Part shown: in pieces, positions 4,865 through 58,779 of the stretch
How the letters are laid out: every line of letters begins with the position of its first letter
Numbering within the stretch: position 1 is the first letter of the stretch
DNA from: an uncultured archaeon
GTDB lineage: Archaea; Asgardarchaeota; Lokiarchaeia; Sigyniarchaeales; SOKP01
DNA length: 64,000 nt
Assembly: GCA_964447495.1 (NCBI GenBank)
Contig: CAYUTF010000006.1
Span: 1,156-65,155 of the forward strand
Direction of reading: 5' to 3'
Position numbers and translations under genes: made by a program
The notes under the pieces: model-generated
The model's database searches: none
What the model saw: only the letters and a program-made list of their open reading frames with translations
What the model was told of the DNA's origin: nothing

Positions 4865-5113
4865 TTGAAAAATTGGGTCAAATTAAATCTATTCTATCTG
4901 GGGGACTCTAAAAAGAGTCGTATTTTTAGAGCAAAAAGATGGAATAAAAGCCTTGAAAAAATAACACATAAACATATTTTTACAGAAAAGTATGAAGAAA
5001 TCGGAGTTATAAAAGAAATTTTTGGTCCGATTAATTTACCATTCATTTCAGTCAAAACTCATCATGAAATCCAAATTAATCCCAATGAAAATTTTTATGT
5101 TAAAATGCAGTAA
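4865..5113 (+). CDS. gar1: H/ACA ribonucleoprotein complex subunit Gar1
   Basis: It carries the motif IGVIKEIFGPINLPFISVK typical of archaeal Gar1, and is about 80 aa long. It lies immediately upstream of tfb, as in many archaea. The start is TTG. Confidence 0.6.
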   Translation: MKNWVKLNLFYLGDSKKSRIFRAKRWNKSLEKITHKHIFTEKYEEIGVIKEIFGPINLPFISVKTHHEIQINPNENFYVKMQ

Positions 5114-5160
5114 AAAGTATTAAAATTCCCCGATAACCATTCTAAAAAAAGGTGTAAATT

Positions 5161-6123
5161 ATTTCGAGTTGGAACCAAATTAAAACAATCCCATTTGAAA
5201 GAATAAAGATTGTAAATAACCTTTGTTCTGAATGTGGAAAAAATATTTTGTTTGATGAAAATAGAGGGTTATTGGTTTGTGAAGAGTGCGGATTAGTTCA
5301 TTCAGAGAAATTTATTGATCATGGTCCTGAATGGAGAGCTTTTGATGCTGATCAAAAGAAAAAAAGAACTAGAACTGGAGCCCCTATGACTTATATGATA
5401 CATGATAAGGGCTTATCAACCATGATTGATTGGAAGAATAGAGATATTTTTGGAAAGGAAATTCCCGCAAAATTAAGAGGCCAAATTTATCGACTCCGTA
5501 AATGGCAGAGTCGAATTAGAGTGTCTGATGCGACTGAGCGAAATCTTACTTTTGCTTTAAGTGAATTGGATAGAATGGCTTCTAATTTAGATCTTCATAA
5601 GAACATTCGGGAGTGTTCTGCAAAGATATATAGAGATGCTGTTGAGGCTCATCTTATTCGTGGAAGGAGTATTGAAGGAGTAGCTGCTGCTAGTTTATAT
5701 GCAGCATGTCGTATGTACAAAATTCCACGAACACTCAATGAAATTGCTGATGTAGCAAGGGTAGACAAAAAAGAGATTGGAAGATCGTTTCGATTTATTT
5801 CGAATGAATTATTGCTTAACTTAAATCCTACTAAACCTTTGGATTTTCTTACACGATTTATTTCAGAATTGGAATTATCTCCTTATTGTCAGAAAACGGC
5901 TAAAAAGGTAATAAAAATGGCTGAAGTAAGAGGTTTAACCTCTGGAAGAGGTCCTACAGGAGTATGCGCTGCCGCAATTTATGCGGCCTCAATATTAACT
6001 AAAGAAAGAAGGACTCAAAGAAAAATCGCTAAAATTAGTCAGGTTACAGAAGTGACAGTAAGAAATAGATTTTCTGAATTAATAGATAATTTAGATTTAG
6101 GGATAAAGATTAAAAAGAAATAA
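5161..6123 (+). CDS. tfb: transcription initiation factor IIB (TFB)
   Basis: It has two cyclin-fold repeats and a B-finger/linker region (GPEWRAFD...). The Zn ribbon CSEC-x14-CEEC begins at 5224, upstream of the track's TTG start at 5248. The frame is open from 5158, and the only start candidates are ATT 5158 or 5161 after GGTG at 5151-5154. The call is secure but the start coordinate is uncertain. Confidence 0.85.
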
Positions 6124-6292: not shown

Positions 6293-6643
6293 ATGAAGTC
6301 AGAAAGTCCGAGATTGATTAATCAAACGGAAGTTAACTACTTTCTCCACCGAGTTAAGAAAAATTTTCCTAATTTTGTGGCAGTTGTTATCACAGATCGA
6401 AATGGATTTCCAATAGGTTCACATATCTCAAAAAGACTATGGGTTCATGAAAACACTTTGGCTTTGTGGGCAATTTCAAAAAATAAAGAATTGGTTATAA
6501 GAGATCCAAATTTAGTCCAATTGAAATTTAATATAGATAAAGAAAAAAGATACAAGCTTTTCATTTTATTGGAGAAATCTAAAAATTACAAAAGTAAATT
6601 AAAATTATTAAAAGAGATAATCAAGGGTCAAGAGCTATTCTAA
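6293..6643 (+). CDS. Roadblock/LC7 (MglB-like) domain protein
   Basis: Its size (116 aa) and pattern fit the Robl/LC7 fold (NFVAVVITDRNGFPIGSHIS...LALWAIS). Confidence 0.5.
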   Translation: MKSESPRLINQTEVNYFLHRVKKNFPNFVAVVITDRNGFPIGSHISKRLWVHENTLALWAISKNKELVIRDPNLVQLKFNIDKEKRYKLFILLEKSKNYKSKLKLLKEIIKGQELF

Positions 6644-6808: not shown

Positions 6809-7288
6809 TTGATAACGTTGAGTTATTCTGAAGATGAGATGAAACTGAAAAAAATTCTAAAGGAGATTATTAATAGTACTGCTGGACTGAAAAACGTTAT
6901 TATTATAGATGATACAGGGATAACTATAATGAGCGAGTCTAAATTTAATTTCCCAAGTGAAGATGATATTTCAGTAGAAAAAATAGGAGCAATTGGAGGA
7001 GCTGTTTTCATAGCTGGACAGGAACAAGGTCATATCTTGGGTTATGGAGATATAAGTCTGCAGATCACGGAATATAATAAAGGCTTTCTTTTTTCACTAA
7101 AAATTGGAAAAGGAGTTCTTTGTATTGCTACAGATAACAACGTACAAGTTGGATATATACGCGCCTTAATGAAAAAATGGGCACCTTTAATAGCAAAAAT
7201 TTTGAACAACTATCTGCAAACTGACCAAGGAGAGATAAATAAAGAATTAAAAGATTTATTTAGTTCAGATACAATTGGAATGTTATAA
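6809..7288 (+). CDS. Roadblock/LC7 (MglB-like) domain protein
   Basis: LKNVIIIDDTGITIMSES...GAIGGAVFIAGQEQG...ITEYNKGFLFSLKIG is typical of Robl/LC7. The start could instead be ATG at MKLKK. Confidence 0.55.
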   Translation: MITLSYSEDEMKLKKILKEIINSTAGLKNVIIIDDTGITIMSESKFNFPSEDDISVEKIGAIGGAVFIAGQEQGHILGYGDISLQITEYNKGFLFSLKIGKGVLCIATDNNVQVGYIRALMKKWAPLIAKILNNYLQTDQGEINKELKDLFSSDTIGML

Positions 7289-58274: not shown

Positions 58275-58583
58275 TTAATCAATTGGTACATCTACAGCAC
58301 CTTCCATATGATCCTTGAAAGGTACTTCAACTTTTAATATTCCATTTTTATACATGGCTTTCGATTTATCAGCAGATACGGGACAACATATGGCATATGA
58401 TCCCACATATACTGTATTTTCACTTTCCCCTTTCACAAAAAAAGAATCCTCATGCATTTTCAAAGCTATTGTATCTTTTTCTACACCGGGCATAGTTATT
58501 TCAATATGATAATTATCATGTTCATCATCTGCATAAGCACATATATCAGGGGATATTATATACTTTTCTTTCTCTTCAGATAT
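58275..58583 (-). CDS. Hsp20/alpha-crystallin-domain small heat shock protein
   Basis: HIEITMPGVEKDTIALKMHEDSFFVKGE...AMYKNGILKVEVP is present. The track start ATG 58493 falls inside the ACD (within ..EITMPGV..). The frame is open back to TGA 58592-58590, and ATA 58583 lies 6 nt after GGTGA (58594-58590). Confidence 0.7.
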   Translation of the reverse strand: MSEEKEKYIISPDICAYADDEHDNYHIEITMPGVEKDTIALKMHEDSFFVKGESENTVYVGSYAICCPVSADKSKAMYKNGILKVEVPFKDHMEGAVDVPID

Positions 58584-58779
58584 GATTAATCACCTTTTTA
58601 ATTTAATTGGATTTATTTCATTAAGAAATATCAAAATAGGCATTTTAAAACTTTGTTTTATGATTTGTAAGACTTTGGACTAAATCCTTATTTGAAAGAA
58701 TATTTCAGAGCCATTTTTATTTTATTTTATAAATTTTATACATAATATCATATTTACGTTAACTTTATCGCCTATTTTT

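Follow-up and report, generated by a model that had tools for sequence, protein, structure and literature searches.

We analysed 64,000 nucleotides (nt) of DNA from an uncultured archaeon of the class Lokiarchaeia (GenBank assembly GCA_964447495.1, contig CAYUTF010000006.1), referred to here as the window. Homology identifies one of its genes, tfb, as that for the main form of the basal transcription factor TFB in a Lokiarchaeial (Promethearchaeota) archaeon. The gene has an open frame with no ATG, GTG or TTG before the zinc ribbon begins. We consider it likely that a Shine-Dalgarno (SD) element, AAGGTG, directs initiation to AUU at position 5161, giving a TFB with an intact ribbon. In all species compared, the codon at this position is ATH (ATT, ATC or ATA). 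An earlier note on this DNA had put the beginning of TFB ahead of all canonical start codons, and argued that the protein needs its first cysteine pair. An invariant first CxxC motif, a reading frame free of stops in 80 species and a fixed spacing from AAGGTG all support this.

The tfb reading frame and its conserved ATH codon

No stop interrupts the tfb frame between 5158 and the TAA at 6121–6123, and a further TAA (5155–5157) lies directly before 5158. Codons 5158–5247 read ATT ATT TCG AGT TGG AAC CAA ATT AAA ACA ATC CCA TTT GAA AGA ATA AAG ATT GTA AAT AAC CTT TGT TCT GAA TGT GGA AAA AAT ATT. None of these 30 codons is ATG, GTG or TTG. The G+C content of the window is 29.7%, and we estimate that such a run would occur by chance with P ~0.25. 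The run alone is not rare; what goes beyond chance is the conserved domain and N-terminal motif inside it. All coordinates in the earlier note were correct when we re-read the frame, the TAA, the cysteine pairs, TTG 5248, GGTG and the ATT and ATA sites. One element had been overlooked, namely an in-frame GTG at 5152–5154, immediately before the TAA.

The Pfam profile Zn_Ribbon_TF matched residues 23–62 of the open reading frame (ORF) started at 5158 (E=8.1e-14, profile positions 3–43 of 43). Thus, as had been claimed, the ribbon begins 5′ of TTG 5248. All four cysteines are retained only if translation starts upstream of 5224. The Pfam TFIIB repeat matched in two stretches, corresponding to two cyclin repeats (E=1.1e-47). 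The protein core matched Pyrococcus TFBc (PDB 1d3u_B and 1ais_B) at ~2e-63 and human TFIIB at 8e-44. The cysteines of the first CxxC were invariant across an alignment of 48 protein sequences. A lineage-specific N-terminal tail of ~21 residues precedes the ribbon, and its terminal motif, S-[S/N]-W-[N/K/R]-[E/Q/D], is near-invariant (L001–L127). AlphaFold2 gave a predicted local distance difference test score (pLDDT) of ~90 for the core and below 50 for residues 1–18. Hence, the tail is predicted to be disordered, and the model is uninformative on the role of the SSW motif.

The earlier note had proposed an alignment with TFB orthologs. We compared the window with the TFB loci of 79 species-representative Promethearchaeota (Lokiarchaeia) genomes, one per genome, giving 80 species. 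The genomes were chosen by protein similarity, independently of the leader motif, and are the closest relatives only. Their TFBs are at least 81% identical to that of the window. All relatives are metagenome-assembled genomes (MAGs) and taxon labels are those of the submitters. A further 42 metagenome contigs were fetched by DNA pattern, and all loci were read in the TFB frame. Among the best 120 database homologs, TFB protein identity was 81–95%.

The comparison supported a conserved ATH start codon. Nearly everywhere, the leader follows the consensus AAGGTG NNN NNN ATH TCN AGT TGG A[A/G]N. Hence, the arrangement is not confined to this genome but occurs throughout the sampled lineage. The codon homologous to 5161 is ATT in 69 species, ATC in eight and ATA in three; it is never ATG, GTG or TTG. 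Four candidate starts had been listed previously (ATT 5158, ATT 5161, ATA 5203 and ATT 5209). Of these, 5161 proved to be conserved and the other three did not. Indeed, no near-cognate codon other than ATH at 5161 is shared by all 80 species. The triplet before it varies (TTT 28, AAT 13, ATT 13, TCT 6, others) and so cannot serve as a general start. From ATH to the first cysteine there are 18–24 codons, usually 21.

Coding constraint was assessed by counting in-frame stops across the 80 species. Between ATH and the first cysteine there were none in 1681 codons, compared with 135 and 202 of 1601 in the other two frames. In the 63 nt upstream of GTG, the TFB frame contained 191 stops in 1680 codons. 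Conservation has a three-base periodicity 3′ of ATH, and there is no such pattern 5′ of ATH except at AAGGTG. Hence, coding constraint starts at ATH, or at most 6 bases before it, and translation begins between GTG and ATH. No canonical start is found anywhere before the ribbon in 21 of the 80 species. The SSW motif lies 5′ of every canonical start in 49.

Synonymous sites at the first codons are also unusually conserved. At the proposed start the share of ATT is 0.86, compared with 0.45–0.75 at 14 invariant internal isoleucine codons of the same gene. TCA makes up 85% at the codon that follows, compared with at most 55% at other invariant TCN serine codons. Such conservation is expected of an initiation region and argues against an ordinary isoleucine codon. 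From these patterns we infer that AUU 5161 is the initiating codon. ATG is one mutation from ATT, yet it is absent at this codon in all sampled species. Selection may thus have held the start weak or acted on the sequence as such, although the argument is modest given ~6 changes at the codon. ATG does occur within the 6-nt spacer of rare lineages. In L008 (AGGGTG TAG ATG ATT) and L100 (TAGGTG ATG ATT ATT) it lies 3 and 0 nt after GGTG, respectively, and may represent a switch to a canonical start.

The AAGGTG element and the GTG-stop within the leader

The distance from GGTG to ATH is 6 nt in 75 of the 80 species, 7 nt in three and 5 nt in one. The remaining species, L022, has AGGGAG instead. 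Numbered relative to ATH, G is found at –10 in 79 species, G at –9 in 77, T at –8 in 75 and G at –7 in 76. The consensus 3′ end of archaeal 16S rRNA is AUCACCUCCU (PMC7531240), and AGGUG is complementary to CACCU within it. The natural leader of Pyrococcus abyssi aEF1A, GGAGGUGAUUUAA-AUG, has the same 6-nt spacing (PMC6237735). SD elements are reported to be rare in Lokiarchaea (PMC12993045, PMC7531240). Consistent with this, AGGTG occurs 4–10 nt before the 5′-most plausible start of only five genes in the 64 kb (at 5150, 32212, 35809 and 54383 on the plus strand and 58595 on the minus strand). Three of these genes start at ATG and two at ATH.

We propose the following mechanism. AAGGUG would pair with the 3′ end of 16S rRNA and so set AUU 5161 in the P site of the 30S subunit. 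Initiator Met-tRNA would then read AUU with a third-position mismatch, and the in-frame GUG within the SD would not be a productive start. The predicted product, M-S-S-W-N-Q..., has 320 amino acids (aa) and would carry a short disordered tail and the complete four-cysteine zinc ribbon. In vitro, Sulfolobus solfataricus 30S–aIF1A–aIF2–Met-tRNAi complexes bind AUU mRNA unless aIF1 is present (PMC4705826). Since aIF1 causes AUU to be rejected, an AUU start is expected to be weak and to be used to a degree set by initiation stringency. By analogy, initiation at AUU 5161 is probably weak and aIF1-sensitive. A weak start would hold down or tune TFB synthesis, and an SD that is unusually strong, and of a kind rare in Lokiarchaea, would compensate in part.

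The GTG inside the AAGGTG element aligns with the start chosen by gene callers in relatives that lack the stop. In 43 of the 80 species a stop comes immediately after GTG (TAA 34, TAG 8, TGA 1). In L054, TAA follows one triplet later, bringing the count within two codons to 44. L014, L027, L018 and L058 have the GTG in another frame, and L022 lacks it. At least 12 switches between stop and sense were counted on a neighbour-joining tree of coding sequences, and TFB stays intact across all of them. Sister species can differ by a nonsense change (L039 TGT TAC, L054 TGT TAA) or, as with L058 compared with L023 and L060, by a 1-nt spacer indel. Hence, the window does have a stop directly after GTG, but the two codons are not both conserved in frame.

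One relative is annotated from GTG, with the N-terminus VSIISSWN (P0001). This suggested that GTG 5152 might be the true start, recently disabled by the nonsense codon TAA. The 80-species survey and the tree led us to reject this as a general explanation. Read across these sequences, GTG 5152 is not a productive or general start. GUG-UAA might possibly act as a start-stop, or guard against a GUG-initiated extended protein.

We found no conserved structure in the leader RNA. The RNAalifold consensus had an energy of –0.18 kcal/mol and 3 pairs, and the mean z-score of single folds was –0.55. Rfam gave no match within the window.

Hsp20, the tfb neighbourhood and public annotations

The second of the two ATH genes preceded by AGGTG encodes Hsp20 (Table 1). 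On the minus strand its leader reads AAGGTG ATTAATC ATA TCT GAA GAG. Pfam HSP20 (alpha-crystallin) covers residues 22–95 of the extended ORF. The first canonical ATG (58493) corresponds to residue 33 and so lies inside the domain. Hsp20 homologs begin MSE[D/E]KEKY. The codon homologous to the Hsp20 ATA is ATG in L129, GTG in L130 and ATA in L128, in each case 7 nt after GGTG. Thus, at least two genes of this lineage have ATH precisely where a canonical SD-led start would stand. A relaxed scan of the window for SD-led ATH starts also returned 56857 (plus strand) and 28547 (minus strand); both were dropped as plausible canonical starts lie nearby.

The Hsp20 homolog with the canonical ATG (L129:235–415) carries an apparent 1-nt deletion ('gatactatcacattgaaataa') that truncates its frame. 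This accounts for the 72-aa call P0189. The break is either an assembly error or the mark of a pseudogene.

Table 1. Positions in the window of the features of the tfb locus and of the Hsp20 gene.
Feature	Position	Strand	Basis or remark
gar1, H/ACA ribonucleoprotein Gar1	4865–5113	+	Pfam Gar1, E=6.4e-8; directly 5′ of tfb, co-oriented
TATA-like TATTAAAA, preceded by an A-rich stretch resembling a B recognition element (BRE)	5118–5125	+	Sequence read; kept in closest relatives L001 and L006
AAGGTG, putative SD element	5149–5154	+	Complementarity to 16S rRNA 3′ end, conservation; GGTG is 5151–5154
GTG-TAA, in-frame 'start-stop'	5152–5157	+	Within and directly 3′ of the SD
ATT, first codon of the open frame	5158–5160	+	Possible alternative start in this genome; not conserved
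ATT, proposed TFB start codon	5161–5163	+	Cross-species comparison
Proposed TFB coding sequence, 320 codons and TAA	5161–6123	+	Tail of ~21 residues, zinc ribbon, reader/linker, two cyclin repeats
S-S-W-N codons of the N-terminal motif	5164–5175	+	Synonymous sites unusually conserved
In-frame ATA and ATT	5203 and 5209	+	Candidates nearer the ribbon; neither conserved across species
First zinc-ribbon cysteine pair, C-S-E-C	5224–5235	+	Sequence; cysteines invariant in alignment
TTG, first canonical start	5248–5250	+	Gene callers' choice; 291-aa product without first cysteine pair
Second zinc-ribbon cysteine pair, C-E-E-C	5278–5289	+	Sequence, Pfam
Hsp20	58275–58596	–	AAGGTG 58596–58591, 7-nt spacer, ATA 58583–58581 likely start

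The surroundings of tfb are conserved. Upstream is gar1. At least 69 of the 80 loci have it 5′ of TFB, with its stop codon only 20–50 nt before AAGGTG. Such a gap fits an operon with an internal SD-led cistron, or a promoter within the end of gar1. Hence, gar1 and tfb may share one transcript. The TATA-like TATTAAAA is a possible tfb promoter, with a predicted transcript start near 5144–5150. Two small proteins are encoded downstream (6293–6643 and 6809–7288). One has a match to MAPKK1_Int (E=1.3e-6; LAMTOR3/MP1-like, roadblock fold), the sort of eukaryote-like signature that Asgard genomes typically carry.

Public annotations of the TFB N-terminus conflict. Besides VSIISSWN, from GTG, records begin MSSWNQ or MISSWNQ (NCBI, from ATT or ATA), with an MK-type sequence from a downstream ATG, or with LFDENRG in the 291-aa form from TTG. 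The truncated 291-aa TFB is on record in NCBI, Logan and JGI, and entries P0121 and P0128 are of this form. The NCBI annotation of L022 (P0018) already begins at the homolog of ATT 5161. Standard callers thus truncate or mis-start TFB, and the rule AAGGTG-N6-ATH would mend the conflicting calls across Lokiarchaeia. A Lokiarchaeal TFB locus (86% protein identity) is also present in a GTDB representative titled 'Candidatus Nanopelagicaceae bacterium' (L028, DATKTW010000174.1), where the contig is probably mis-binned.

Alternative explanations and known systems

Some observations weigh against SD-directed initiation at AUU 5161. An ordinary internal isoleucine codon would also vary between ATT, ATC and ATA and, with so few changes, the absence of ATG is weak evidence alone. 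Within the window, sequence alone does not separate ATT 5158, which lies 3 nt after GGTG, from ATT 5161. GTG is in frame and open in 31 of the 80 species and may be used there. Stops follow GTG in 54% of species, where ~11% are expected, and a simple SD-spacer model does not account for this excess. Nor does SD pairing account for T at –6 (82%) and T at –1, both of which are conserved in over 80% of species relative to ATH. Finally, with SDs rare in Lokiarchaea, AAGGTG could serve another role.

The excess of stops, ~5-fold over background, and the conserved T at –6 would be better served if GUG-UAA were a functional minimal start-stop ORF. Ribosomes would initiate at GUG 5152 on a short or leaderless-like leader, stop at UAA and then reinitiate at AUU, or the ORF would act as a brake on TFB. 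The TATA-like sequence would suit this by putting the transcript start a few bases before GTG. Even so, we think such a role unlikely. The stop is missing in 36 of the 80 species and has been repeatedly gained and lost, and the GTG itself is displaced from the frame in four species and absent in one. If AAGGUG pairs with 16S rRNA, GUG would be buried in the SD duplex. Moreover, initiation at AUU would still be needed to make TFB, so the start-stop would add a layer to SD-directed initiation and would not replace it. The scarcity of SDs also favours other routes of initiation, as do A/T-rich tracts 12–30 nt 5′ of ATH in many species. The transcript could be leaderless, beginning at or near ATH with AAGGTG as a promoter-proximal element in the DNA, or near-cognate codons could be used in a species-specific manner. 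This seems to us quite improbable. At 24–31 nt before ATT 5161 the window reads CGATAACC, a sequence unlike a TATA element, and a G-rich promoter-proximal element would be atypical. Non-AUG codons at the 5′ terminus are poor leaderless starts. In addition, Hsp20 has the same geometry of AAGGTG, spacer and start with ATG or GTG in relatives, as an SD predicts.

TTG 5248 is the first canonical codon and is taken as the start by gene callers, and several public annotations give the resulting 291-aa form. If they were right, TFB would work without the first cysteine pair and the open frame upstream would be fortuitous. We regard such a ribbon-less protein, which the earlier note had also raised, as very improbable. 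There is no SD before TTG 5248, and the site of the first canonical codon differs between species. The first CxxC is invariant, and the frame upstream is stop-free in all 80 species with three-base periodicity. Furthermore, the B-ribbon of TFB and TFIIB is required to recruit RNA polymerase. The missing ATG might instead have reflected an error of sequencing or assembly, or a decaying pseudogene whose start was lost through a nonsense change, TCA to TAA, at codon 2. In favour of this, L004 (P0001) has GTG TCA where the window has GTG TAA, a difference of one base. We consider it effectively refuted. Two JGI metagenome assemblies made independently from different samples (L131 and L132) match region 5101–5260 base for base. 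Dozens of diverged species also have GTG-stop, and one of these sequences is a closed MAG chromosome (CP070831.1, L084). The gene body is intact, and the protein is 81–95% identical to its homologs.

Frameshifting or an upstream ORF was also rejected: the other upstream frames hold stops and no start, and the A7 run before GGTG is missing in relatives. Reassignment of stop codons was ruled out, since both gar1 and tfb end at TAA.

Reviews list AUG, GUG and UUG as the only archaeal start codons (PMC7531240). In the literature we found no description of a non-canonical TFB start in Asgard archaea or of conserved archaeal AUU, AUC or AUA starts, and nothing specific on Asgard transcript-start maps. 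A broader proposal, which we put forward tentatively and hold to be somewhat doubtful as a whole, is that Lokiarchaeia use AUU, AUC and AUA as true SD-dependent starts. These would be the first conserved starts other than AUG, GUG or UUG described in archaea. On the essential TFB they would be kept weak across the class as a control point for aIF1 stringency, with GUG-UAA adding a second layer. If this is true, AUH initiation of TFB throughout the class would serve as a naturally occurring indicator of how stringently start codons are selected and of how aIF1 acts. It would also point to control of the basal transcription machinery at the level of translation, and this in the archaea most closely related to eukaryotes. 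Hsp20 gives a hint that more than one gene is affected. The tfb start is of interest for the gene concerned, for its conservation across the class and for where the lineage stands in evolution.

At the protein level, Lokiarchaeal TFB resembles other TFB and TFIIB proteins in having a four-cysteine N-terminal zinc ribbon and two cyclin repeats. Pyrococcus TFB has few residues before the first cysteine. The Lokiarchaeal protein differs in its predicted-disordered tail, with the S-S-W motif, and in its non-canonical start codon.

Start-stop upstream ORFs are known from the AUG-UAA of Arabidopsis NIP5;1, and ribosome profiling with retapamulin has identified start-stops in E. coli. The window resembles these in that GTG is directly followed by TAA just 5′ of the main start. 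The differences are that the stop is often absent in relatives, that the GTG belongs to the SD, and that the 6-nt element overlaps the initiation region and is known here from sequence. Eukaryotes also use near-cognate starts under the control of eIF1 and eIF5, as in AUU-initiated TEAD1 and GUG-initiated EIF4G2. As proposed for tfb, the initiator tRNA reads a first- or third-position mismatch, eIF1, which is homologous to aIF1, sets the stringency, and the genes are regulatory. However, the tfb codon would be placed by an SD, with no scanning or Kozak context, in a prokaryote with polycistronic genes.

The tfb locus combines a domain 5′ of the canonical starts, a codon at the edge of coding constraint and an SD at a functional distance. 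These are the features sought in a conserved SD-led near-cognate start. In E. coli, pcnB starts at AUU. The same is true of bacterial infC, encoding IF3, in which the AUU start is conserved (PMC4705826). These genes and tfb share a near-cognate AUU conserved among orthologs, an SD upstream and an expected weak start that depends on a fidelity factor rejecting non-AUG codons. There are differences from infC. The archaeal tfb would answer to aIF1 and aIF2 instead of IF3, and it codes for a transcription factor and not a fidelity factor, with no obvious autoregulatory loop. The tfb position can also be ATC or ATA, and its start is proposed from sequence. With these differences, the conserved AUU start of infC is the closest analogue of the tfb start.

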